A DNA stretch of 64,000 nucleotides from Escherichia coli (GTDB lineage: Bacteria; Pseudomonadota; Gammaproteobacteria; Enterobacterales; Enterobacteriaceae). The DNA lies in NCBI RefSeq assembly GCF_041248615.1, contig NZ_CP158426.1, one strand, 5' to 3'. Both the position numbers and the translations under genes were made by a program. Positions 2,058 through 15,174 of this stretch are shown piece after piece (position 1 is the stretch's first letter; each line of letters starts with the position of its first letter). The notes beneath the pieces were generated by a model. It saw only the letters and a program-made list of their open reading frames with translations. It was not told the origin of the DNA and ran no database searches.

Positions 2058-2300
2058 GTGGTGTCAACCAACCATACGCGAGAGTCCTCTCCGTATTTAT
2101 CAGTGCCTCAGGACGATTTCTGCATAGTTAATCCAGGGGGCTGCATTGTTTATTTCCCTGCTAATGGACGTGACATCCAGGATATTCATGATCCTGATTT
2201 CCCTGAGCAGTATCAGCGCTTATTGGAGCGTCTGGATTATCAGACGATGCCCGGTACTAAAGCATCAGGCCAGCGTAACTCTGGCTACAGCGGTTTTTGA
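2058..2300 (+). CDS. doubtful ORF (80 aa), possibly a gene remnant
   Basis: ORF begins with GTG, contains no ATG start, no clear ribosome-binding site; same frame as ORF 2328..2894 but separated by two in-frame stops. Confidence 0.25.
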   Translation: MVSTNHTRESSPYLSVPQDDFCIVNPGGCIVYFPANGRDIQDIHDPDFPEQYQRLLERLDYQTMPGTKASGQRNSGYSGF

Positions 2301-2327
2301 CCTGTTGTAACTGTAAGGTGATTTATT

Positions 2328-2894
2328 ATGTATACAGAATCAAATGTTAAGCTTTCCTGTAACGCCCTCTGGCAAAAGTGTGTCCTTGCAACTCTGTATC
2401 GGGCTGCAGCCACACATCCTGAAATTAAATTATTACAATTTAAATTAATACCAGGGCAGGGTATTAATAAGGCCATTCCCTCTCTGATGGCTGATTTTAC
2501 TGGTGAACTGCATAGACTCATTTCTGAATATTTGCAGTGTAAGCGACGTAAAGAGCAATCTGTTGAGCCCACCCCTTTATATTATCTCTGGAGTAGGGAA
2601 GCTGTGGCTAACGATACCACTCCTTATCTTATGGTGCTGCTACTTAATAACGATGTCTGGTGTAAGAGTCGTGAGGTGGTGGTTCTCAGAAATCTGATTG
2701 AGCAGGCGTGGGGAAAAGTATTGGGTGAAGATAACTCCATTACACATCTGGTTGTGTATCCTGAAGTGCTGTCGTTGGTATTTGATGCAGCTAACACATA
2801 CAACGCTGAGCCTGCTGTACTGGAACAGACGGCCCGGGCTTACATTGAATCACATGGTACCATTGAACGTCATCTTGGGTGTAGTGACTTTTAA
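2328..2894 (+). CDS. hypothetical protein (188 aa)
   Basis: ATG preceded by AAGG about 8 nt upstream; moderately AT-rich; followed by a stem-loop at 2911..2938. No family recognised. Confidence 0.45.
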   Translation: MYTESNVKLSCNALWQKCVLATLYRAAATHPEIKLLQFKLIPGQGINKAIPSLMADFTGELHRLISEYLQCKRRKEQSVEPTPLYYLWSREAVANDTTPYLMVLLLNNDVWCKSREVVVLRNLIEQAWGKVLGEDNSITHLVVYPEVLSLVFDAANTYNAEPAVLEQTARAYIESHGTIERHLGCSDF

Positions 2895-2910
2895 CGTCAG
2901 GTGATGCATA

Positions 2911-2938
2911 AGGGCCTTTCGCTGAGAGGCCCTGTTTA
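2911..2938 (+). terminator. putative intrinsic terminator after ORF 2328..2894
   Basis: 7-bp stem AGGGCCT/AGGCCCT with 9-nt loop followed by GTTT; T-run is weak. Confidence 0.3.
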
Positions 2939-3156
2939 CACAATTAAATAAATCGAGCCCGACCAACAATTTTGATGTTAACAGCAGGATTATTGAGGGG
3001 CAATCAATGTGTTCTTCGGTAGCGATTACGGTAGTGAACGGACCTGCTGTCTGAATGGCATCGATCCGCAAGCGTATCGGCGCCATATTCTGAGCGTACT
3101 ACTGAAATGGCTAATGGCAGTAAAGAGAGACTTTACGTATATTTGCATAAAGCAGG

Positions 3157-3186
3157 ATTTTACGACTAGTCAACATTCTTTATAAT
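3157..3186 (+). promoter_or_regulatory. putative sigma70 promoter of orphan gene
   Basis: TAGTCA (3157-3162), 18-bp spacer, perfect TATAAT (3181-3186), about 55 bp upstream of ATG 3240. Confidence 0.3.
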
Positions 3187-3239
3187 TCTTCAGGTTCAGA
3201 GTATCTGACATATAGGGTTATGTATTGGGGAGACATTTA

Positions 3240-3941
3240 ATGTTTGGCCATCTGTTACGATACTTTAGTTTCTGTAAAAAAGATTTATTAGTATTTCATC
3301 CTGAATCTGATTACTCAGATAATTTACATAAAGCCTTCTCTTTTACAAAAAGGCTAGGATTTAATGAAGAATGGAATGGGGTCACAAAAAACAAAGAATA
3401 TGATTATCAGGATGTATTCAGTCATGTCTGTCTGCAGTCTGGTGTGACAGACTTTTCCGCTTCAGCAGGACAATGCTTAAAGTGGAGTCATTATTTTCAG
3501 CCATATTTTGAGAATATCCTTGAATGTCGGGTATGGGTTACCGTTGGACAACTCTGGAAACAGGAACGATTTATTTACAATCCGTCAGTTGCGGATTTTC
3601 AGCGCTGGTCTGAAAAAGGGATTCAGCCTGAAGATTTTAGACATCACTCGGGGTTTAACTTTCATGCGTGGTTGACGACGGAAAATGGTGTGATTGTGGA
3701 TGTTTCCTTTATGAGTACGTTATCGCGGCGATTACCTGAACACCTGAGTGAAGTCAGTGGAAGTGTGATTATTGGCACGCCAGAGACGGTTCTTCCTGAG
3801 TATAAATATGTTCCCATGATTGTCGGTCAGAGGATTGTTGAGAAAATAGAAAAACGCTCTTTCATTGGTTTTCTGGCGCACGACGATATTGATTTATATA
3901 CAGTACCTGCAATCTTGGTTCCGGTATGGAAAGAATGTTAA
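3240..3941 (+). CDS. hypothetical protein (233 aa), AT-rich orphan cargo gene
   Basis: ORF 3225..3941 starts at TTG; in-frame ATG at 3240 sits 6 nt after GGGGAGA. Sampled stretches are clearly AT-rich versus neighbouring core genes. No family recognised. Confidence 0.55.
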   Translation: MFGHLLRYFSFCKKDLLVFHPESDYSDNLHKAFSFTKRLGFNEEWNGVTKNKEYDYQDVFSHVCLQSGVTDFSASAGQCLKWSHYFQPYFENILECRVWVTVGQLWKQERFIYNPSVADFQRWSEKGIQPEDFRHHSGFNFHAWLTTENGVIVDVSFMSTLSRRLPEHLSEVSGSVIIGTPETVLPEYKYVPMIVGQRIVEKIEKRSFIGFLAHDDIDLYTVPAILVPVWKEC

Positions 3942-4260
3942 AGCACGGAATAACACTATGCACTTACCGCTTTCCGGAACTCAGCTTGTTACCTGAGCGG
4001 TCAACAGAGCAGTCTTTCAGTGTCTGCACTTGGTTGCCACTAAACCGGAGTCATTTATCAGAAGTATATGTTCATGGAAGGATATTGTCAGCGCCAGTGA
4101 TATAAGACGGTAATGAGGATAGCCACCCCGCATGGGTTTCCTCAACACTGGTCACTGTGACAAGCGCACCATGATCGTCTTTGTATCGCTGATTGACTTT
4201 CGATAATAGAACATCTTCTGACATAAATTTTAGTACGGTAACAATTAACTAAATTTTCAT

Positions 4261-4527
4261 GTGGTAGCACTGAATCAGGAGACTGCGTTTCCTGATGTGT
4301 GCTTCTGCAGCCGTTACCGGATACAGACTTCGATACCAGTTACTTCGACATCCGCCATGTGTCCTGGGACCCGCTATAACGAAGTTGGAGGTAATCAGTA
4401 CAGCGTTCCCGAAATGCTGTGTGGTCAGCCAGTCTCGATACGAATATCGCTGAACGATGAGTTGCGGATCTACAGTAATGAGAAACTGGTGGCCTCACAT
4501 CGCCTCTGCTCAGTGTCGTCTGGCTAG
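4261..4527 (+). pseudogene. transposase C-terminal fragment (IS21 IstA-like?)
   Basis: Short ORF with C-terminus resembling transposase tails (ELRIYSNEKLVASHRL); weak, from memory only. Confidence 0.3.
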
Positions 4528-4671
4528 CAGATAGTACCGGAACCTCACGCCCCGCTCTGGCAGCAGATCAGTCAGGTGGAACATCGACCACTGAGTGCCT
4601 ATGAGGAGCTGTTGTGATGCATGTGTCAACGACGGATGAAAGTGGCTCTTCCGCAACCTGGGTGGAGATTT

Positions 4672-6098
4672 TCATGCCAGTGGACTCATTACCCTCTGCC
4701 TGAGTAGTTCAAATCCTGCTCGACCATACATCTGGCGTTTCAGCATCTTCAGGCGATTTACATGACCTTCGACAACACCATTACTCCAGTGACTACTGAT
4801 TGCCTCACATATAGCTGCAGCATCAGCTTCCATCCCCGCCGCCACGCGCCGAAATTCTGCTGAACCGCTTTCGTGGACTCGAGTGAACCAACTGCTTAGC
4901 TGTGATTTATTTTGGGTTTTCAGAATACGGTAGAACTCGAGTGCCAGTTGCTGCGCTATTTTCAGCTCAGGTTCTTTTTCACACATCAGACTAATAAATC
5001 GGGAAGCATAATTTTCTTCATCCCTGGTTATTCTCCAGGGCATCAACCAGCGGCTTACCCGGGACACTGAAGGAAGTCTGACGGCAGTAGTAACCGGTGG
5101 GTTCCAGCCTTTACGCCATTTGGCAACCGCATCCCTGACGATGGTTTCACTGCCTGTAAATCCCCGGGCCACCATTTCCCGCCATATCCGGCTGGCGTTA
5201 TAATTACCACTTTCTCGTTGCTCTTTTAACCACTCCCTCCATGGGTCCAGAAGCCCTCGCTTTGGCGGTCGGGTTGACATTTCAGGGAATGTTCCTGAAC
5301 GCACCCAGCGACTGACTGTCACACGCGACAGGCCTGTAATACGGGATATTTCCCTGAAACTACATCCCTTGTTATGCAGGGCCATAACCTCTGTCCAACG
5401 CTGATGCCGTTTTTTGCGGGTTTGTTGTTTTAGGCGTTCCGGACGACGGAGCGATGCTGCAGGCACAGATGGTTCTGGATCAGGTGATTTCTTTGGTGAC
5501 AACTCACTGGCAACAAGACGTATCAGAGGTATATGTCTATACATCATTCGTTCAGGCGCATCGCCAATATTTTTTAGCAGATGCCATCGATCGGCCACCT
5601 GTCTGGCCTGAGGTGCACCTTCACGTGCTGCTGTCGCATAGACTCCACTGCGATCACGCGAGACAATCTGTATTTCCGGATATTTTCTGAACCAGGTCGC
5701 CAGCGTACGCTGATCACGGCCGGGAAGCAGGACGAGGGGACGGTGAGTATCAAGATTGACGATTAACGTACCGTAACGGTGGCCCCGATGCCACGCCCAC
5801 TCATCAATACCGACATGAGGCGAGCCTGACTGTTTCGTCTCCGGGGTATTGATAACCCTGCGAAGGAGAGTATCAGCACTGCAACGGAGACCCACTGCCG
5901 TTGCTGCCCGTTTCCCGGCCTCACCTCCGGCGATTAATCCCAGTTGACGTTGTAAATTTTGTAACGCCTGTGAAGACTGTTGGTGTGAACCGGCGAAGGG
6001 AGCAAGCGACTCGGCAAAAATTTTACGTGAACAAGCCGGGTTACGGCAGTACCAGTGGCGGACAGAAAATACAAGCCATAGCGTATGTCCTGAGCAGG
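4672..6098 (-). pseudogene. ISL3-family transposase, C-terminal ~475 aa, interrupted by IS2
   Basis: C-terminus carries ISL3 signature (SNGVVEGHVNRLKMLKRQMYGRAGFELLRQRV); N-proximal zinc-finger-like RHWYCRNPACSRKIF; ORF runs 12 codons into IS2 end at 6099. Confidence 0.8.
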
Positions 6099-6109
6099 TG
6101 GATTTGCCC

Positions 6110-7015
6110 CTATATTTCCAGACACCTGTTATCACTTAACCCATTACTGGCCTGCTGCCGCAGATATTCCCGTGGCGAGCGATAACCCAGTGCACTATGC
6201 GGATGCCATTCGTTATAATGCTCGAACGCCTCTGCAAGGTTCTTTGCTGCCGTTAACCCGTCTGGTTTAGGCATGATACTGATGTAGTCACGCTTTATCG
6301 TTTTCACGAAGCTCTCTGCTATGCCGTTACTCTCCGGACTCCGCACCGCCGTGTTCTTCGGTTCAAGCCCCAATATCCGGGCAAACTGCCGTGTTTCATT
6401 AGCCCGGTAGCATGAACCATTATCCGTCAGCCACTCTACTGGAGACGCCGGAAGCTCGTTGCCGAAGCGGCGTTCCACCGCTCCCAGCATGACGTCCTGT
6501 ACTGTTTCACTGTCGAAGCCGCCCGTAGTGACTGCCCAGTGCAGTGCCTCACGGTCACAGCAGTCCAGCGCGAACGTGACTCGCAGTTTTTCTCCGTTAT
6601 CACAGCGGAACTCGAACCCGTCAGAGCACCATCGTTGATTGCTTTCTTTCACGGCCACTTTGCCAGTATGTGCCCGTTTCGATGGCGGTACAGCGGTTTT
6701 TCGCTCAAGCAACAGCGCATTCTGGCGCATGATCCGGTAAACACGTTTGGCATTGATCGCAGGCGTACCATCAAGTTCGGCCTGTCTGCGAAGCAGCGCC
6801 CATACCCGACGATAACCATACGTGGGCAGCTCTCCGATAACATGGTGTATACGGAGAAGCACATCCGTATCATCTGAGTGACGGCTGCGGCGACCATCTT
6901 TCCAGTCATCGGTTCGTCTGAGAATTACGTGCAACTGCGCACGCGACACCCGGAGACAACGGCTGACTAAGCTTACTCCCCATCCCCGGGCAATAAGGGC
7001 GCGTGCGCTATCCAC
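6110..7015 (-). CDS. insD: IS2 transposase InsD (orfB)
   Basis: 301-aa [19 protein letters not shown]... matches remembered IS2 InsD. Confidence 0.9.
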
Positions 7016-7338
7016 TTTTTTGCACGCCCGTATTCAACGGCTTCTTTAAGGAGTTCATTTTCCATCGTTTTTTTGCCGAGCAGGCGCTGGAGTTCTTTAA
7101 TCTGCTTCATGGCAGCAGCAAGTTCAGAGGCAGGAACGACCTGCTCTCCTGCGGCCACAGCAGTAAGACTTCCCTCCTGGTATTGCTTGCGCCAGAGAAA
7201 TAACTGGCTGGCTGCCACACCGTGTTGCCGGGCAACAAGGGAGACCTTCATTCCCGGTTCAAAACTCTGCTGAACAATAGCGATCTTTTCCTGTGTAGTA
7301 CGCCGTCTGCGTTTCTCCGGTCCTAAGACATCAATCAT
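6973..7338 (-). CDS. insC: IS2 InsC (orfA)
   Basis: ORF 6973..7383 contains [22 protein letters not shown]...; start placed at that Met (121 aa); overlaps insD as expected for frameshift fusion. Confidence 0.85.
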
Positions 7339-7429
7339 CTGCTCTCCAATGACTAGTCTAAAAACTAGTATTAAGACTATCACTTATTTAAGTGATATTG
7401 GTTGTCTGGAGATTCATGGGGCCAGTCTA

Positions 7430-7569
7430 CCTGTGTAGTACGCCGTCTGCGTTTCTCCGGTCCTAAGACATCAATCATCTGCTCTCCAATGACTAGTCTA
7501 AAAACTAGTATTAAGACTATCACTTATTTAAGTGATATTGGTTGTCTGGAGATTCATGGGGCCAGTCTA
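7430..7569. repeat. perfect tandem duplicate of the terminal 140 bp of IS2 (IRL end plus insC 5' end)
   Basis: 7430..7569 is base-for-base identical to 7290..7429. Confidence 0.85.
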
Positions 7570-7782
7570 ATGTGTATCCGGGATGGATGTTTACCAGAAC
7601 CTTCTCTGTTCCAGTGTGTGGAGTTTTACAGAAGAGGCGACTGTATGCAACTCTTGCCCCGTAACTGTCTTTATTCGTTTCTCCACACTCTCCGGACATT
7701 GTAAATTCCAGATGTGTGGCAGTGTGTTTTTCGTAAATCGTACACAATGCATTTTTACACGGAGTTCAGCCAGTCGTATCAC
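7570..7782 (-). pseudogene. probable N-terminal remnant of the ISL3-family transposase, beyond the IS2 insertion
   Basis: Short frameshifted minus-strand ORFs (7520..7747, 7591..7782) adjacent to the IS2 junction; assignment by position and weak similarity only. Confidence 0.35.
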
Positions 7783-8036
7783 TGAGAGTTTTTTTTCTGA
7801 TTTGTACCACTCATGCAGCAGTGATAAGGAGATATTTTCTCTGTCGGGCCAGCAGGGGCGGTGCCACCTGTTTAGTTTTCTTATGTTTGGTAAAAGAGAG
7901 GCTAAAATATATACAACAGGCGCATGTAATGATTCATATTGTTAATCATTAACCAGTAAGAATTAATGTAGTGGATCGGTAATTCAGGACACCTCGAAAT
8001 CCTGTTAATGTTAAAACAGTGAAAATGGGGTGATGC

Positions 8037-8354
8037 ATGAGCAAAACTCGTCGGACTAAACGCACCTTTTCCCCGGAGTTCAGGCTCGAAGCTATCGAGC
8101 AAGTAGTTAAATACCAGCGCGATGTCAGAGAAGTCGCGCTGGCACTTGAGCTCAATCCTGACCATTTGCGTAAATGGATACGGTTGTATAAGCTGGAACT
8201 TCAGGGTATTGAGCCCGCTGGTAATGCCATACCCCTGAACAGCGAGAAATTCAGCAGCTTAAAAGCGCAGATAAAGCGCCTTGAGATGGAAAAAGAAATA
8301 CTAAAGCAGGCTGCCGTGCTGATGAGCGAAATCCCCGGCAAGCTGTCGCGCTAA
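8037..8354 (+). CDS. IS3-family transposase OrfA (105 aa)
   Basis: MSKTRRTKRTFSPEFRLEAIEQV... with helix-turn-helix and leucine-zipper-like tail typical of IS3 OrfA. Confidence 0.75.
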   Translation: MSKTRRTKRTFSPEFRLEAIEQVVKYQRDVREVALALELNPDHLRKWIRLYKLELQGIEPAGNAIPLNSEKFSSLKAQIKRLEMEKEILKQAAVLMSEIPGKLSR

Positions 8355-8455
8355 TCACACTGCTGAAAGCAAAGCGGCCAGTGCGGATTATTTGTCATTT
8401 ATTCGGTGTTCACCGTAGCGTTTATTACGCGCAGGTGAAGCGTCCTGTTAATGTA
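8355..8455 (+). pseudogene. IS3-family orfB N-terminal remnant (truncated)
   Basis: Reads ...LFGVHRSVYYAQVKRP... typical of IS3 OrfB N-terminus, then ends at the junction near 8456. Confidence 0.45.
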
Positions 8456-8519
8456 TCAGCGCCAATGATATAAGACAGTAATTAGGATTCGGACGATTTC
8501 CTGGACTGCTTTATTATGC

Positions 8520-9229
8520 CAGCCCGCATTGTTGGCGGTACATTTCAGGGATGACTGCACCCAGCGAAAATTTTATACGCCGCTCGTTATACCATCTGAT
8601 GTAAGCATCCACATGCCGCATGAATTTTTCAGGCGTGATACCCAATCATTTACGCCCATAATATATTTCAGTTTTCAGTCTGCCGAAAAAGCCTTCGCAT
8701 GCAGCATTATCAGGCGAGCATCCTTTACGGGACATTGAGCGAATAAGGCCTGCTGTATTCACTCTTTCCAGCCAGGCCAGCGATAATGCCCACCTCTGTC
8801 ACTGTGTATCACCGGTCGTTCGCCAGCATTTAACGTTTCGACAGCGTTATCCAGCATAGTGTTGACCAGTTCAGCATCGGGGCGTGTACTGAGAGACCAG
8901 CTCACAACTTTTCTGTCGAAGCAGTCCACCACCGGTGATAGCCAGACTTTTCCTGCAGGAAGCTGGAACTCCGTGATATCTGTCAGCCATTTCTGATTAG
9001 GTTGCTCCGCCTTAAAATCTCTGGCGATAAGGTTATCCGGAGAAGGTCCGATTTCTCCGCAATATGAGCTGTAGCGGCGATGACGGTTACGGCTGACGAC
9101 AAGCTGTTCCTCCACCATAAGTCTGCGTACAACCTTTTCTGATAGCCGATCCCCCTCATGCCTGAGCATCGCATGCAGGCGACGATAGCCATAACACTGG
9201 TAATTACTGTTAAATATATCTGTCAGCAT
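8520..9229 (-). pseudogene. IS3-family transposase orfB (DDE), frameshifted
   Basis: ORF 8759..9229 has DDE-region motifs (WLTDITEF, HSDRGG); downstream out-of-frame segment encodes SMSRKGCSPDNAACEGFFGRLK. Confidence 0.75.
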
Positions 9230-9337
9230 CGTACGTATCGTGGCGTATTTATCACTGGCTTTCAGTGCAGCCCGGTGATAAAAATAACTGCTACGGGCAA
9301 GGCCCAGAACATGCAGTAATTCTGTCAGGGGATATGT

Positions 9338-10041
9338 TTATCTCAGGGCATCAGTAATCTTTGTTTTTTCTCTGTTGTTCAGGTGACTGATGCTGATGCC
9401 CGGGTCTTTTTTTATTATTTCCTCCGCTTTTTTCAGAATATCCAGTTCCATCTGCCGGCGGCGTATTTCCTGATTCAGTCGGGCGACTTCCTCCCGCAAC
9501 GCATCGCGTTCTGCCTCCAGGGAAGGGGCGTTATGTTTACGCATAGTCTGGTAAGCACTGTTGCCGATAATTTCATCTTTCCATTTATACAATACCGCGC
9601 GACTGACACCAATACGCCTGGCGATTTCACTGGCTGATCCTTGTCGTGTACAGAGTACCATGACAGCCTGACGTTTGACTTCTGGTTCAAAGGACGCAAC
9701 CGGATTGGTCTTACTGGTAAATACACGTCGTCTGTCGGGGGAACGTTCATTAACCCAGCGAGCGAGCATATCGGTACAGGGATAACCCAGAGTCCTGCTG
9801 GTAAACGCCAGGCAGCAGCCGTGGTTAAGATAATGTTCAACGGCAACCTGTTTTTGCTCATCGGAGTAACGGTGCTTATGACGAATGGATTCTTTTGATC
9901 CGCCACCTGCTTCCCATGAACGGATCCAACGCCGCAGATTTCTTTTCGAAGGGTAGCCCAGTTCGCGTACGACGGGGCCAGCTTCTTACCATATTTGAAA
10001 TAAAGCTCAATGGTGCGAATTTTTTGTTCTTCAGTAAACAT
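9338..10041 (-). pseudogene. IS3-family transposase orfA, frameshifted
   Basis: MFTEEQKIRTIELYFKYGKK at 10041 then a frame shift; ORF 9338..9769 carries the helix-turn-helix and coiled-coil tail. Confidence 0.6.
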
Positions 10042-10291
10042 GTTTCATCTCCTGAGAGTCCAGGAAATCGTCCGCATCCCCTAACGGTCAAAAATCGTGG
10101 CGTTGATACAGGGGAAATCCGTAGTTTTTGATGCCAGCCATAACGTGTTTGACTATAAAGTATTACGAAAGGACTTTAATGAGCCCCTGGAATAATTCAT
10201 TAAAGTAATTTACTTCGCTATCCTTTTCCCAGTTACTCACAAAGAAAAATATTCATAAAATAATTCCCGGGCTGGCAGCCCGGGATGATTA

Positions 10292-11554
10292 CTATTTTAA
10301 TGGATTGTTAATCTTTGCATATTCAAACGGGCTGATACATTGTTCTCTGTTCGCACCCAGAAAATCTGCCCACCACTGTAGCATCAGTCGACGTTCTTCC
10401 AGATGTTCTGCTTTATGGATATATGCAGCACGTACACCATTACGCTCCTGATGGCTCATCTGACGTTCCACAGCATCGCGGGACCACAAACCTGATTCAA
10501 TCAATGCACTGCACGCCATCGCCCGGAATCCATGACCACAGACTTCCTGGGTTGTGTCATATCCCATCACCCTCAGGGCTTTATTTACAGTATTTTCACT
10601 GATCGGTTTACGCGGGTCATGTGCTCCCGTAAAGATCAGACCATTTTCACCAGCCCATGTCTGTAGTTCTGTCAGTATGGCTACAGCCTGTTTGCTGAGT
10701 GGCACAAGATGTGGTGTTCGCATCTTGGAGCCCCGGTGTGAGTATTTTACGCCTGGCAGAGGTTCGCGTTCGGCTGGAATAGTCCACATGGCATTGTCAA
10801 TATCAATTTCAGACCAGCGGGAATATCTGAGTTCACTGGAACGAATAAAAACCAGTAAATTCAGCATAACTGCCAGTCGGGTGACAGGCTGACCTTTATA
10901 ACCGTCAATACGCGACAGAAGTTCAGGCAGGCGTGAAAGATCCAGAGCAGGGCGATGCTGGCGTTTTACCGTGGTCAATGCACCAGCCATATCCAGAGCC
11001 GGGTTATATCTGATGATGCCAGACTGTACGGCATAACGCATTACAGCAGATATTCTTTGCTGCAGACGACTGGCGATTTCATAAATTTGTTTTGCTTCTG
11101 CAGCACGAACAGGGATAAGCAGGTCCGGGGTATTGAGTGTTGTGATATCCCGGTTGCCGATAAAGGGGAAAACGTGTGTCTCGAGGCTTTTGATTACTTT
11201 ATCGCTGTGTGATTGTGCCCATTGTTTATTACTGGCATGCCAGCGTCGTGCAATATGTTCAAAAGAGAGTTGTAAATCAGGGACTACTTTTTTAGCTCTT
11301 TTTTGTTCGCAAGGGTCAATCCCCTCTGAAATCAGTTTTCGGGCCTCATCCCGTTTTGTACGAGCTTCGGAGAGAGAAACTTCTGGATATACACCAAGTG
11401 CCAGAGTCTTCTCCTTACCCAGAATACGATAACGGAGACGCCAGTAACGGGAACCATTAGGATGAACCAGCAGGAACATGCCAGCCCCGTCAGTGAGTTT
11501 ATAAGCCTTGTCAGTGTGCTTTGCAGCCCGGATTTTTGCGTCAGTCAGTGCCAT
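10292..11554 (-). CDS. P4-type tyrosine integrase (420 aa)
   Basis: MALTDAKIRAAKH... N-terminus and length typical of P4/CP4-57-like integrases; about 200 bp from the tRNA-Phe 3' end, same orientation. Confidence 0.9.
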   Translation of the reverse strand: MALTDAKIRAAKHTDKAYKLTDGAGMFLLVHPNGSRYWRLRYRILGKEKTLALGVYPEVSLSEARTKRDEARKLISEGIDPCEQKRAKKVVPDLQLSFEHIARRWHASNKQWAQSHSDKVIKSLETHVFPFIGNRDITTLNTPDLLIPVRAAEAKQIYEIASRLQQRISAVMRYAVQSGIIRYNPALDMAGALTTVKRQHRPALDLSRLPELLSRIDGYKGQPVTRLAVMLNLLVFIRSSELRYSRWSEIDIDNAMWTIPAEREPLPGVKYSHRGSKMRTPHLVPLSKQAVAILTELQTWAGENGLIFTGAHDPRKPISENTVNKALRVMGYDTTQEVCGHGFRAMACSALIESGLWSRDAVERQMSHQERNGVRAAYIHKAEHLEERRLMLQWWADFLGANREQCISPFEYAKINNPLK

Positions 11555-11751
11555 AGTTCAGCCTTCTGAATGCGTTAAAGAGGGTACAAATTCTGTCGAA
11601 CTGGGGTATACCCGCAATTATACCCACACAATGGGGTTGATGTGGGGGGAATCTGGTTGAGTTCGGTAGAATTGATTTGGAGGCAGAACGCTTAAATTGT
11701 GGCGTTCTGAAACGAAAAACGGACCTCCGTGGAGGTCCGTTGATATGAATT

Positions 11752-11827
11752 TGGTGCCCGGACTCGGAATCGAACCAAGGACACGGGGATTTTCAATCCC
11801 CTGCTCTACCGACTGAGCTATCCGGGC
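11752..11827 (-). tRNA. pheV: tRNA-Phe (anticodon GAA)
   Basis: Reverse complement reads GCCCGGATAGCTCAGTCGGTAGAGCAGGGGATTGAAAATCCCCGTGTCCTTGGTTCGATTCCGAGTCCGGGCACCA (76 nt); pheV assigned by yqgA-speC context. Confidence 0.95.
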
Positions 11828-11932
11828 AACGGGGCGCATTAAACCTGATTCGCCTCGTCTCGTCAATCAAATTTCTTCAATTTAGTGCAGACTGCACAAT
11901 CTATCATCACTTTGCCGCTATTGCACACATTG

Positions 11933-12640
11933 TCAGGCAAACCAGGCGGTCCAGGCGGCGGAAAGCGGCATTGCCAGAAGGAGTGCTGGAAGCATGTTGA
12001 CCACCGGGAACATTTTAATACCACAGATGCGTAATCCGGTTGCCAGCAGCAATAAACCGCCTACGGCGCTGAAGTCTGCCATCATCGACGGTGTGGTCAG
12101 CGGTAATATCAGCGCGGCAGCCCACGCCAGTGTTAACTGGATGATCAGTAATGGAATGCTAATCACCGACACCGCAATACCCAGCGAGCAGGCGAAGATC
12201 ATCGCCGTAAAGAAATCAAGAAATGACTTGGCGATTAAAATACTCGGATCGCCGGTCATCCCTTCGTTCATCGCCCCGAAGATTCCGGTGCCGCTGGCGC
12301 AAAACAGAACAATAATCGCGACAAAATTCTGAATAAAAGATTCATGCGCTGGCTTCTTACGCGAGTGGTGAAACAGATTATGCGCTTTGACGACCACTGT
12401 ATTGACGCCTTTTTCCAGCAGACAAATTTCGCCGATTAATGCTCCGAGTAAGGTTGCTAAAACCATCGCCGGAAGGTTGGCGCATTTCACCACCAGTAAA
12501 ATACCAATCCCCAGCGATGCCAGACCAAAAATTGATGTCATGGAGACGCGGATACGTTCCGGTAAGCGTTGGCTAAGGAGTGCGCCGAAAACGCCACCCA
12601 GTAAGACTGCACTTGCGTTGATAAAAGGGCCGATGACCAC
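11933..12640 (-). CDS. yqgA: DUF554-family inner membrane protein
   Basis: 235-aa hydrophobic ORF at the K-12 yqgA position. Confidence 0.85.
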
Positions 12641-13038
12641 AAGAGTTCCTGTTAGCTGTATTGTTTGATTTTCTTATTATGAACTTTTGGCGCCGTCGAT
12701 GGCTTGTTTGTTCGCAAAGTCCTGGCTTGCACGCTTTAGCGAAAGGTGCCATGATTGCGCGAATTTTCTCCTCTCTGTACGGAGTTTGCCCGATGCACGC
12801 CACCTCCTTACATTCTCTCGCTTATCGCCGTTTTGCGCGAAACTCTTCTCTTTTTATGCTACTGCTCATGCGGTGAAGTTAACGCACGCTCACTGCAGGA
12901 CAACAGTAAAATCAGAGCGTTTCTGCTTTTACTGATGTCTGGTGGTCGGAGCTGGTGACCAGTTTGACCCATATCTCATGGGGCAGGGTTTTCCACCTTG
13001 TCCGGTATTCTTACTTCCCCTAAACGGGTTTTGCGCTT

Positions 13039-15174
13039 ATGAAATCAATGAATATTGCCGCCAGTAGTGAACTGGTATCCCGACTTTCTACTCATCGCCG
13101 CGTGGTGGCGTTGGGAGATACTGATTTTACGGACGTCGCGGCAGTCGTCATTACCGCTGCGGATAGTCGCAGTGGCATTCTTGCGTTGCTTAAGCGCACC
13201 GGTTTTCATCTACCGGTGTTTTTGTATTCCGAACATGCTGTTGAATTACCTGCGGGCGTTACGGCGGTAATCAACGGCAACGAGCAGCAGTGGCTGGAGC
13301 TGGAATCCGCAGCCTGTCAGTATGAAGAGAATTTGCTGCCACCGTTTTATGACACGCTGACGCAGTACGTTGAGATGGGTAATAGCACCTTTGCTTGCCC
13401 TGGACATCAACATGGTGCGTTCTTTAAAAAGCATCCTGCCGGACGCCATTTTTACGATTTCTTTGGCGAGAACATCTTTCGCGCCGATATGTGTAACGCT
13501 GACGTAAAATTGGGCGATCTGCTTATTCATGAAGGATCGGCGAAAGATGCGCAGAAATTTGCAGCCAAAGTCTTTCATGCCGATAAAACCTATTTTGTGC
13601 TGAACGGCACATCGGCAGCGAATAAAGTGGTGACGAATGCGCTGTTAACGCGTGGCGATCTGGTGCTCTTCGACCGTAACAACCATAAGTCGAATCATCA
13701 TGGCGCGTTGATTCAGGCGGGGGCGACGCCGGTCTATCTGCAAGCTTCACGTAACCCGTTTGGTTTCATTGGCGGTATTGATGCGCACTGTTTTAATGAA
13801 GAGTATCTGCGCCAGCAAATTCGCGACGTTGCGCCAGAAAAAGCCGACCTGCCGCGCCCGTTTCGCCTGGCGATTATTCAGCTGGGAACCTATGACGGCA
13901 CTGTCTATAACGCCCGTCAGGTGATCGATACCGTTGGGCATCTGTGTGATTACATTCTGTTTGATTCCGCGTGGGTCGGTTACGAACAGTTTATCCCGAT
14001 GATGGCGGATAGCTCGCCGCTGCTGTTAGAACTTAACGAAAACGATCCGGGGATCTTTGTGACTCAGTCGGTGCACAAACAGCAGGCGGGATTCTCACAG
14101 ACGTCGCAGATCCATAAAAAAGATAACCATATCCGTGGACAGGCGCGTTTTTGCCCACATAAGCGGTTGAATAATGCCTTTATGCTCCATGCTTCTACCA
14201 GCCCGTTCTATCCGCTGTTCGCCGCCCTGGACGTTAACGCCAAAATTCATGAAGGGGAGAGTGGGCGTCGGCTGTGGGCTGAGTGCGTTGAGTTGGGTAT
14301 TGAGTCGCGCAAGGCTATTCTTACGCGCTGTAAGCTGTTCCGCCCGTTTATCCCGCCCGTTGTTGATGGCAAATTGTGGCAGGATTATCCGACGTCAGTG
14401 TTAGCCAGCGACCGCCGTTTTTTCAGTTTTGAGCCGGGGGCGAATTGGCACGGCTTTGAAGGATATGCCGCGGATCAGTATTTTGTTGATCCGTGCAAGC
14501 TGTTACTCACCACGCCGGGTATCGATGCCGAAACCGGCGAATATAGCGACTTTGGCGTTCCGGCGACGATTCTGGCGCACTACCTGCGTGAGAACGGCAT
14601 TGTGCCGGAGAAGTGCGATCTCAACTCCATTCTGTTCTTATTAACTCCGGCGGAAAGCCACGAGAAGCTGGCACAACTGGTGGCGATGCTGGCGCAGTTT
14701 GAACAGCATATTGAGGATGATTCGCCGCTGGCTGAGGTGTTGCCGAGCGTTTATAACAAATATCCGGTGCGCTATCGCGACTACACCCTGCGCCAGTTGT
14801 GTCAGGAGATGCACGATTTGTATGTCAGTTTCGACGTCAAAGACCTACAAAAAGCGATGTTCCGCCAGCAGAGTTTCCCGTCAGTGGTGATGAATCCCCA
14901 GGATGCGCATAGCGCTTATATTCGCGGTGAAGTGGAGTTGGTGCGGATTCGTGATGCCGAAGGGCGAATTGCGGCAGAAGGGGCGTTGCCTTATCCACCT
15001 GGCGTGCTTTGCGTGGTACCCGGGGAAGTCTGGGGTGGGGCGGTTCAACGTTATTTCCTTGCGCTGGAAGAAGGCGTGAATTTGTTGCCGGGATTTTCGC
15101 CGGAGTTGCAAGGTGTCTATAGCGAAACCGATGCGGATGGCATGAAACGGTTGTACGGTTATGTGTTGAAGTAA
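13039..15174 (+). CDS. speC: ornithine decarboxylase, constitutive
   Basis: 711-aa ORF MKSMNIAASSELVSRL...; length and sequence match remembered SpeC. Confidence 0.95.
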   Translation: MKSMNIAASSELVSRLSTHRRVVALGDTDFTDVAAVVITAADSRSGILALLKRTGFHLPVFLYSEHAVELPAGVTAVINGNEQQWLELESAACQYEENLLPPFYDTLTQYVEMGNSTFACPGHQHGAFFKKHPAGRHFYDFFGENIFRADMCNADVKLGDLLIHEGSAKDAQKFAAKVFHADKTYFVLNGTSAANKVVTNALLTRGDLVLFDRNNHKSNHHGALIQAGATPVYLQASRNPFGFIGGIDAHCFNEEYLRQQIRDVAPEKADLPRPFRLAIIQLGTYDGTVYNARQVIDTVGHLCDYILFDSAWVGYEQFIPMMADSSPLLLELNENDPGIFVTQSVHKQQAGFSQTSQIHKKDNHIRGQARFCPHKRLNNAFMLHASTSPFYPLFAALDVNAKIHEGESGRRLWAECVELGIESRKAILTRCKLFRPFIPPVVDGKLWQDYPTSVLASDRRFFSFEPGANWHGFEGYAADQYFVDPCKLLLTTPGIDAETGEYSDFGVPATILAHYLRENGIVPEKCDLNSILFLLTPAESHEKLAQLVAMLAQFEQHIEDDSPLAEVLPSVYNKYPVRYRDYTLRQLCQEMHDLYVSFDVKDLQKAMFRQQSFPSVVMNPQDAHSAYIRGEVELVRIRDAEGRIAAEGALPYPPGVLCVVPGEVWGGAVQRYFLALEEGVNLLPGFSPELQGVYSETDADGMKRLYGYVLK

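Follow-up and report, generated by a model that had tools for sequence, protein, structure and literature searches.

What is the function of a small, AT-rich gene embedded in the insertion sequence (IS) debris of a chromosomal island of Escherichia coli? The question is raised by a stretch of 64,000 nucleotides of contig NZ_CP158426.1 (assembly GCF_041248615.1), hereafter the window, whose positions 3240–3941 (+ strand) hold the coding sequence (CDS) of a 233-aa protein, the hypothetical protein WP_000466879.1 of RefSeq. The original prediction, made from the nucleotide sequence, had singled out this gene as a self-contained, horizontally acquired orphan of no recognizable family, possibly endowed with an anti-phage or toxin-like function. 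The results presented here assign the protein to a new family that is modelled as a papain/transglutaminase-like thiol enzyme, and the reading that we favor, whose chances we judge to be about even, is that of a stand-alone enzyme of the conflict with phages or mobile elements that would covalently modify a phage or a host protein.

The reality of the gene is the first point to be settled. The frame ends with the TAA at 3939–3941 and, since all homologues align to the methionine encoded at 3240 and nucleotide homology between genera begins at 3237, its true start is the ATG at 3240 rather than the in-frame TTG at 3225 from which a mechanical list of open reading frames (ORFs) makes it begin. 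The ribosome-binding site GGGGAGA, read from the sequence at 3227–3233 (+), precedes this ATG by 6 nt, so that the single frame and the signal of the original prediction are both confirmed. The claim that the gene is poorer in GC than the core genome also holds, its GC content being 39.5% (35% at third codon positions) whereas core windows of 702 bp average 51.2 ± 3.7% and no more than 1% of them are as poor in GC. A consensus scan identifies a sigma-70 promoter-like site at 3159–3186 (+), consisting of TTTACG (3159–3164), a 16-nt spacer and the predicted near-consensus TATAAT (3181–3186), with 10/12 positions in agreement with the consensus. This site coincides with the 3′ end of a transposase-domain remnant located directly upstream of the gene (3009–3185, +; a partial pseudogene in the RefSeq annotation of three strains) and lies inside the block (window 2148–4192) that is all that the two types of E. 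coli island carrying the gene have in common; no conservation of it was seen across genera. The same scan finds six such sites in the region as against 3.6 ± 2.0 in shuffled sequences and the promoter is therefore plausible, though unproven. The terminator-like structure that had been noticed upstream corresponds to a GC-rich 10-bp hairpin (2911–2933, +; RNA fold −19.2 kcal/mol, z = −2.8) which comes right after the stop codon of the preceding gene; because its U-tract (UGUUUAC) is weak, the terminator scan makes no call there. Downstream of the gene RNA folding revealed no terminator.

As to the “orphan” status of the protein, this part of the original prediction did not survive a HMMER search carried out exhaustively on 1.84 billion representatives. 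At E ≤ 1e-3 the family amounts to 90 clusters, of which 53 remain at E ≤ 1e-10; these clusters (~90 at 50% identity) are spread over Proteobacteria and nearly all consist of stand-alone proteins of 180–250 aa. Kluyvera, Klebsiella aerogenes and Providencia possess full-length homologues that are 39–69% identical, a genome scan found further ones in Erwinia, Pluralibacter, Pseudomonas, Paraburkholderia, Duganella and Collimonas, and a 46%-identical relative is common in Salmonella, Klebsiella, Enterobacter and E. coli. Within E. coli the gene is sporadic, being present in 66 of 5,426 complete genomes (~1.2%) and always on the chromosome. A protein of 4113 aa (P0063) initially retrieved as a family member was discarded, its similarity being due to a spurious repeat motif devoid of the histidine, and the N-terminal extension of another member (P0075) has no match in Pfam.

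The suspicion that the frame is spurious or decaying could be nourished by the IS elements and gene fragments all around it, by a frameshift in the Erwinia psidii copy and by the interruption of one E. coli copy (strain 3908) by IS1 (IS1A). In 65 of the 66 E. coli carriers, however, at least 80% of the CDS is aligned, full-length homologues extend across Gamma- and Betaproteobacteria, the sequence motifs are almost invariant and the predicted structure, described below, is a confident one. Above all, the ratio of non-synonymous to synonymous substitution rates (dN/dS) has a value of 0.076 when the two E. coli alleles are compared and of 0.07–0.25 across genera, a result that excludes the pseudogene reading and demonstrates that the family is under purifying selection. 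Decay is thus effectively refuted, and the homologues are not confined to pseudogene contexts.

The premise that the protein belongs to no described family was, on the other hand, borne out. Neither the protein itself nor any of 72 family members matches a Pfam model by hmmscan even at E ≤ 10, the families of the Peptidase_CA clan included; NCBIfam gives no match, PADLOC-DB v2.0.0 (5,027 models) none at E ≤ 1, and PHROG a single non-significant one (E 0.15). In the PDB, sequence searches gave chance matches only (ZnuA, PEG10), whether the query was the protein or the family profile, AFDB50 contains 145 structural relatives none of which bears a meaningful functional name, and WP_000466879.1 was not found in the literature searched. 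No source searched gives the protein a meaningful functional name and the family is new, in that it lacks a name or a model in any catalogue searched.

What kind of protein this is can be deduced from the residues that its family has kept. In an alignment of 72 sequences, in which identity falls to ~19%, Cys79 (codon TGC, 3474–3476, +), the predicted nucleophile, follows Gln78 in an SAGQC motif and is a cysteine in 69 of the 72 members; His142 (CAT, 3663–3665, +), the predicted general base, is part of an N-F-H-A-W-x-T motif and is present in all 72; Asp154 (GAT, 3699–3701, +), the predicted third residue of the triad, opens a D-x-S/T motif and is Asp in 60 members and Glu in the other 12. Invariant throughout the alignment are also Trp144, Thr146, Gly103 and Pro192, whereas position 156 is either Ser or Thr in all 72 sequences; the remaining conserved positions are those of Thr101-x-Gly103, Tyr190-x-Pro192 and Gly196, and the spacing between the cysteine and the histidine is 63 residues.

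The AlphaFold2 model built from this alignment (pLDDT 93.7, pTM 0.89) places Cys79 at the N-terminus of helix 79–94, His142 as the first residue of strand 142–147 and Asp154 as the last one of the next strand (152–154). As modelled, the protein has the α/β core of the superfamily, in which the helix that begins with the cysteine packs against an antiparallel sheet, and Cys, His and an acidic residue (Asp or Glu) succeed one another in the expected order, the His and the acid being predicted to lie on adjacent strands. In the model, therefore, this layout is that of a canonical papain/transglutaminase-like thiol enzyme, and we are dealing with a new family in a known superfamily. The fold search against the PDB (Foldseek) gave nothing significant; its weak matches keep to the same papain/transglutaminase theme. 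The closest fold matches include the effector deamidases SseI and PMT (Pasteurella multocida toxin). The motifs resemble YGQCW, NFHCW and DPT of TG2, the TG2 fragment used in the comparison having been verified against PDB 6kzb. Nevertheless, a profile alignment (hhalign) of the family with the TG2 core superimposes the His motif alone, H142 falling on the catalytic His335 with a non-significant probability of 3%, and for this reason membership in Transglut_core (PF01841) is unproven at the sequence level; a wider PDB search contributed further animal transglutaminases only.

By analogy with this superfamily the product would be a soluble cytoplasmic thiol enzyme in which Cys79, at the N-terminus of its helix, might attack a carbonyl, with His142 of the adjacent strand serving as general base and being oriented by Asp154, which belongs to the strand that follows. 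Catalysis is predicted to proceed through a thioester at Cys79: once the acyl-enzyme intermediate had formed, its resolution by water would result in proteolysis or in glutamine deamidation, its resolution by an amine in cross-linking.

How the gene travels is a separate question. Across genera the nucleotide homology is confined to the CDS (3237–3908), and an all-against-all comparison of the neighbours at the various loci revealed no shared partner family; the gene is an autonomous one-gene cargo module, as anticipated by its description as acquired and self-contained. Its carriers are integrase islands, integrative and conjugative elements (ICEs) and a Tn7-like element. No match was found in 50,697 phage genomes, 72,556 plasmids yielded two weak partial matches only (23–26% identity, both in Pantoea), and the single match in IMG/VR is the same E. 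coli island.

These data bear on the idea that the protein helps ICEs to counter defence or to establish themselves, by inactivating an immune protein of the recipient through proteolysis or deamidation. The gene is indeed carried on ICEs next to umuDC, anti-restriction genes occur in its vicinity at some loci (ArdA in Providencia, ArdC at locus L025, a KlcA-type gene in E. coli HB-Coli0), and the SseI and PMT deamidases to which the fold is closest disable host proteins. Yet a factor of this kind would hardly be expected to be missing from the phages and nearly so from the plasmids searched, nor to be usually co-oriented with the defence operon of its own element and to lie outside the leading region, so that we consider this explanation to be quite improbable.

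Some further observations concern the carriers. In K. aerogenes (L021:6136-12701) and Kluyvera (L002:7345-12026) the gene resides in a very small integrase element whose cargo consists essentially of an Old-family nuclease and of this gene; the Kluyvera element is so small because the integrase comes directly after the gene, and the Klebsiella version also contains AlpA and two ORFs of 270 and 410 aa. This small Old element adjoins a type VI secretion system (T6SS) cluster that also has a T5orf172/MUG113 gene. The orthologue of Erwinia psidii (L012:7995-8688), which its frameshift splits into three frames, is found in the same Old-nuclease/integrase context as that of Kluyvera. Elsewhere a predicted lipoprotein of ~181–205 aa, with the motifs YYKMG.DWG, GSGSR..ITYSS and VAEGK and no match in the PDB, is encoded directly upstream of the gene and co-oriented with it (L015:7395-7940, L007:7259-7876, L082:709-1281; frameshifted in L061:5390-5934). 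It occurs in two lineages only, an Enterobacterales ICE subclade and an unrelated metagenome lineage, between which the lipoproteins are 47% identical as against 27% over 85 residues for the adjoining family members.

Circumstantial indications of a role in immunity come from the genes that surround the homologues. The neighbourhoods were surveyed in a small, opportunistic sample of ~25 lineages (a lineage being a cluster below 75% identity); since the loci were drawn with an alignment of nine sequences as query, the sample leans to closer relatives, and in a second batch the test was limited to one to three flanking genes at each locus. In 12 of the ~25 lineages, or in 14 if two weak matches are counted, the family member has a known or candidate defence gene within ~5 kb, a frequency that is significant with respect to assumed baselines from 5 to 20% (p ~1e-6 at 10%, taken as genome-wide) but not clearly so at 30–40% (see below). 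Furthermore, in six lineages the gene is placed directly 3′ of a defence gene or operon and in the same orientation: type III CBASS (cyclic oligonucleotide-based antiphage signaling system) in two cases, IetAS in two, Old in one and a GajB remnant in one. A recognized system directly adjoins the gene in eight lineages, and in six of these eight it is the gene that comes 3′, in the same orientation (p = 0.004).

In a Pseudomonas lineage a complete type III CBASS (cyclase, HORMA, Trip13, NucC) is found directly upstream at six loci (L009, L010, L065, L066 and L072, to which L076 is added by clustering of the family members). In a second lineage the type III CBASS is likewise upstream, and CapH/CapP-like genes and TIR proteins are present as well. 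Pseudomonas sp. MF4836 (NZ_MVOL01000002) is one strain in which the gene follows a type III CBASS. Between these two lineages the identity is 81% for the cyclase, 72% for Trip13, 59% for HORMA, 45% for NucC and 43% for this gene. IetAS occurs in three lineages, being directly upstream in two; the three copies linked to it, among which are those of L077 and L085, have 25–28% mutual identity and are scattered on the family tree. In Kluyvera, K. aerogenes and E. psidii it is the Old nuclease that immediately precedes the gene. The list of further neighbours comprises ThsB-like TIR proteins, the SIR2 candidate PDC-S65, an AbiJ-like gene, a type IIG restriction-modification system with Mrr on an ICE, and Mrr-like and HNH nucleases on the Tn7-like element. 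The island represented by loci L027–L029 (~2300–14600) is especially dense in defence genes, the CapH/CapP-like ones (helix-turn-helix + Peptidase_M78) being divergent from the type III CBASS, which is followed by the family member and then by at least four TIR_2-domain genes and an LD_cluster3 gene. An apparent Gabija system in Duganella was rejected; only the C-terminal half of a GajB-like protein is there and no GajA was detected.

This arrangement invites the alternative that the protein is an accessory or regulatory subunit of the abortive-infection systems next to it, in particular of those built around a Trip13/IetA-type AAA+ ATPase, where it might process, reset or potentiate the effector or else remove a phage inhibitor. 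The gaps separating the gene from the upstream co-oriented NucC, IetS or Old are of 43–178 bp, the orientation bias mentioned above is of the kind that such a subunit would produce, five lineages share the ATPase type, as can be said because the TRIP13 and IetA models cross-hit, and in the CBASS pairs the gene has diverged in step with NucC while the cyclase has remained well conserved. However, most lineages, that of E. coli included, have no such system beside the gene, the E. coli copy has a promoter-like site of its own, the systems with which it is found have no mechanism in common, one being a nuclease, another a protease and the third a TOPRIM nuclease, and canonical type III CBASS and IetAS function without the gene (general knowledge and PMC13069673). 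Moreover, the links to type III CBASS and to IetAS concern 2 and 3, respectively, of the ~25 lineages, which falls short of a consistent co-occurrence; no literature linking CBASS or NucC to a transglutaminase was found, and no such partner is described in the literature on IetAS (PMC13069673). We regard the accessory-subunit explanation as unlikely.

The favored reading, that of a stand-alone conflict enzyme, has its own difficulties, which should be considered together. Several lineages gave no defence match at all; in E. coli the neighbours that were tested include neither a recognized defence gene nor a match to any PADLOC model; the protein itself has no counterpart among the PADLOC models and is not in the DefensePredictor supplements searched; and with respect to an assumed baseline of 30–40%, as might apply to island cargo, the enrichment is not clearly above expectation (p = 0.04–0.27). 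In addition, some members are found in contexts that are housekeeping or metabolic and regulatory rather than immune: one that retains the full triad lies between iscS and iscU, and others neighbour α-galactosidase or isochorismatase/SDR/LysR genes. All of these points weigh against a role in defence. The non-immune contexts, the modest enrichment and the lack of PADLOC matches also lend substance to the view that an ordinary enzyme without any immune function, such as an amidase, an acyltransferase or one of protein maintenance, is moved about as cargo, the defence genes nearby being simply what such hotspots contain. This view is hard to reconcile with the repeated and independent placement of the gene, in distant lineages and in the same orientation, after defence operons, which chance co-residence would hardly bring about; furthermore, a presence in ~1.2% of the complete E. 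coli genomes and a low GC content fit conflict genes better than metabolic ones, and we regard the non-immune cargo explanation as rather unlikely. As to the isc-embedded member, a distant one (P0096, 229 aa, L035:7001-7690), it is found on the metagenome contigs L035–L038 in the order iscR, iscS, X, iscU, iscA, and the exact protein has an index entry in 42 collection blocks. Its presence in this Fe-S assembly operon could be due to a selfish insertion or could indicate that the wider family acts on cysteine/persulfide chemistry.

The toxin-like function that had been envisaged together with the anti-phage one prompts a last alternative, namely that contact-dependent inhibition/two-partner secretion (CDI/TPS) or T6SS loci left the gene behind as an orphan module of interbacterial toxicity or immunity. 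Three lineages do adjoin TPS/CDI loci: in Providencia a PT-VENN CdiA is encoded 445 bp upstream of the gene, in E. coli RM10809-3 a TPS/haemagglutinin locus is 0.9 kb away, and in Collimonas the distance to a large haemagglutinin-like protein is 2.8 kb. The copies of Kluyvera and Klebsiella have T6SS genes in their vicinity, and folds like those of PMT and SseI are found in toxins. The protein nonetheless has no pre-toxin or delivery domain, its N-terminus being homologous and complete in all members, and in the Providencia contigs a separate 76-aa gene fills the position of CdiI. A nearly invariant catalytic triad would be unusual in an immunity protein, and the toxin-like reading is weakened because no antitoxin or immunity gene is conserved next to the gene. 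Taken together, these data make a derivation from such loci very improbable. At L093:1486-2436 the gene that immediately precedes a distant family member has a weak match (E 0.0015) to the RES domain, which in RES-Xre toxin–antitoxin pairs is the toxin and degrades NAD+.

Returning to the stand-alone conflict enzyme, the anti-phage idea of the original prediction can be retained in part: the association with defence hotspots and with defence genes in 12 of the ~25 lineages speaks for it, while in E. coli no recognized defence gene is among the neighbours tested and the enrichment does not clearly exceed what island cargo may display. Likewise, the survey of the homologues did uncover defence genes and integrase carriers, but not a conserved neighbour. 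There appears to be a pattern in the association of the relatives with immune systems and, as judged from these sequence comparisons, the gene is a credible candidate immunity gene. According to the mechanism that we propose, the gene would move between the hotspots of integrative elements as a one-gene cargo; in other bacteria it has been placed repeatedly at the 3′ end of anti-phage operons. A more specific version, which we put forward only tentatively, is that of a new anti-phage module with a transglutaminase/papain fold, working either alone or as a portable 3′ add-on that would broaden or safeguard the action of type III CBASS, IetAS and Old; its target, a phage or host protein, would be cleaved, deamidated or cross-linked.

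If the defence role were true, this would represent a new catalytic principle in bacterial immunity, namely a covalent protein modification of the transglutaminase/papain type carried out by a module of 233 aa; to our knowledge, no characterized bacterial defence system uses this chemistry. Since the gene has been recruited repeatedly to both, it would also offer a handle on IetAS and on the effector end of type III CBASS, two aspects of immunity that are incompletely understood. The family is cheap to test, being small, soluble and confidently modelled and lending itself to three obvious point mutants, and should the defence role prove wrong, there would still remain the definition of a widespread family of enzymes for which databases have at present no model.

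The island in which the E. coli gene is found corresponds to that of the original prediction. Its tyrosine integrase (10292–11554, −; ORF list and RefSeq annotation of a 99%-identical region) is followed by tRNA-Phe (pheV; 11752–11827, −; ARAGORN), which constitutes the attachment site, and then by yqgA-speC, and it is this succession that identifies the island as the pheV one. The second E. coli allele (WP_000466881.1, ~97.7% identical) is carried by another CP4-type island, beside ypjA. Both sites of the gene are published defence hotspots of E. coli, #5 and #9: defence systems are present in 141 of the 484 occupied islands of hotspot #5 (yghD-yqgA tRNA-Phe) and in 402 of the 649 of hotspot #9 (tmRNA) (Hochhauser et al. 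2023, PMC10121019, S1 Table).

Upstream of the hairpin the island encodes a YagK/YfjJ-domain protein of 188 aa (2328–2894, +), part of the CP4-type backbone and outside the module; it has no PADLOC match and owes its identification to strain RM10809-3, where a ~95%-identical block holds a 567-bp CDS of the same length and position annotated in RefSeq as “YagK/YfjJ domain-containing protein”. About 1.4 kb upstream of the gene are two tandem paralogues with a start/stop overlap (1045–1434 and 1431–1856, +; 129 and 141 aa, 31% identity over 81 aa), which RefSeq calls “putative zinc ribbon protein” and which likewise have no PADLOC match. On the 3′ side the predicted IS debris is indeed present and comprises a DUF4222 fragment, a Mu-transposase fragment, ISEc38 and IS3-family elements. 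The IS elements are nested (window 4672–7383, −): the transposase ORF of ISEc38 (ISL3-family) has 487 aa as compared to 539 aa in strain CREC-544, and the alignment to CREC-544 ends at window 6098, where an IS3-family element abuts (ORFs 6110–7015 and 6973–7383), which suggests a strain-specific IS insertion or a rearrangement.

A comparison with the closest known systems helps to define what sets this gene apart. The C-terminal domain of SseI (SrfH) and the C3 domain of Pasteurella multocida toxin (4g29 and 2ebf), both glutamine deamidases, share 11% identity with the protein and no sequence-level match; unlike them, the protein has no secretion or translocation domain and possesses a family-specific helical N-terminal region of ~70 residues, and its family occurs in non-pathogenic soil and marine bacteria. 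The transglutaminase-like superfamily includes Transglut_core proteins, BTLCP proteases such as LapG, protein-glutaminase, TglA and TG2/FXIII, yet no member of the present family matches Transglut_core; Atu2299 (PDB 2hly), an uncharacterized structural-genomics protein, is 11–12% identical and non-significant by Foldseek. With regard to gene position, the location after NucC or IetS is that of the CBASS Cap genes and of the ietH helicase of ietHAS, each an extra gene appended to a core system, and acquisitions of this type can be essential (PMC13069673); unlike these, the gene is associated with several types of system and usually with none, and is not described as a Cap or Iet component. Finally, the single-gene candidates of the PADLOC PDC-S series and of the PD-T4/PD-Lambda series are likewise one-gene, low-GC cargo sporadically found at tRNA/tmRNA hotspots, and it is these that the gene resembles in its mode of life, even though it matches none of the PADLOC models.

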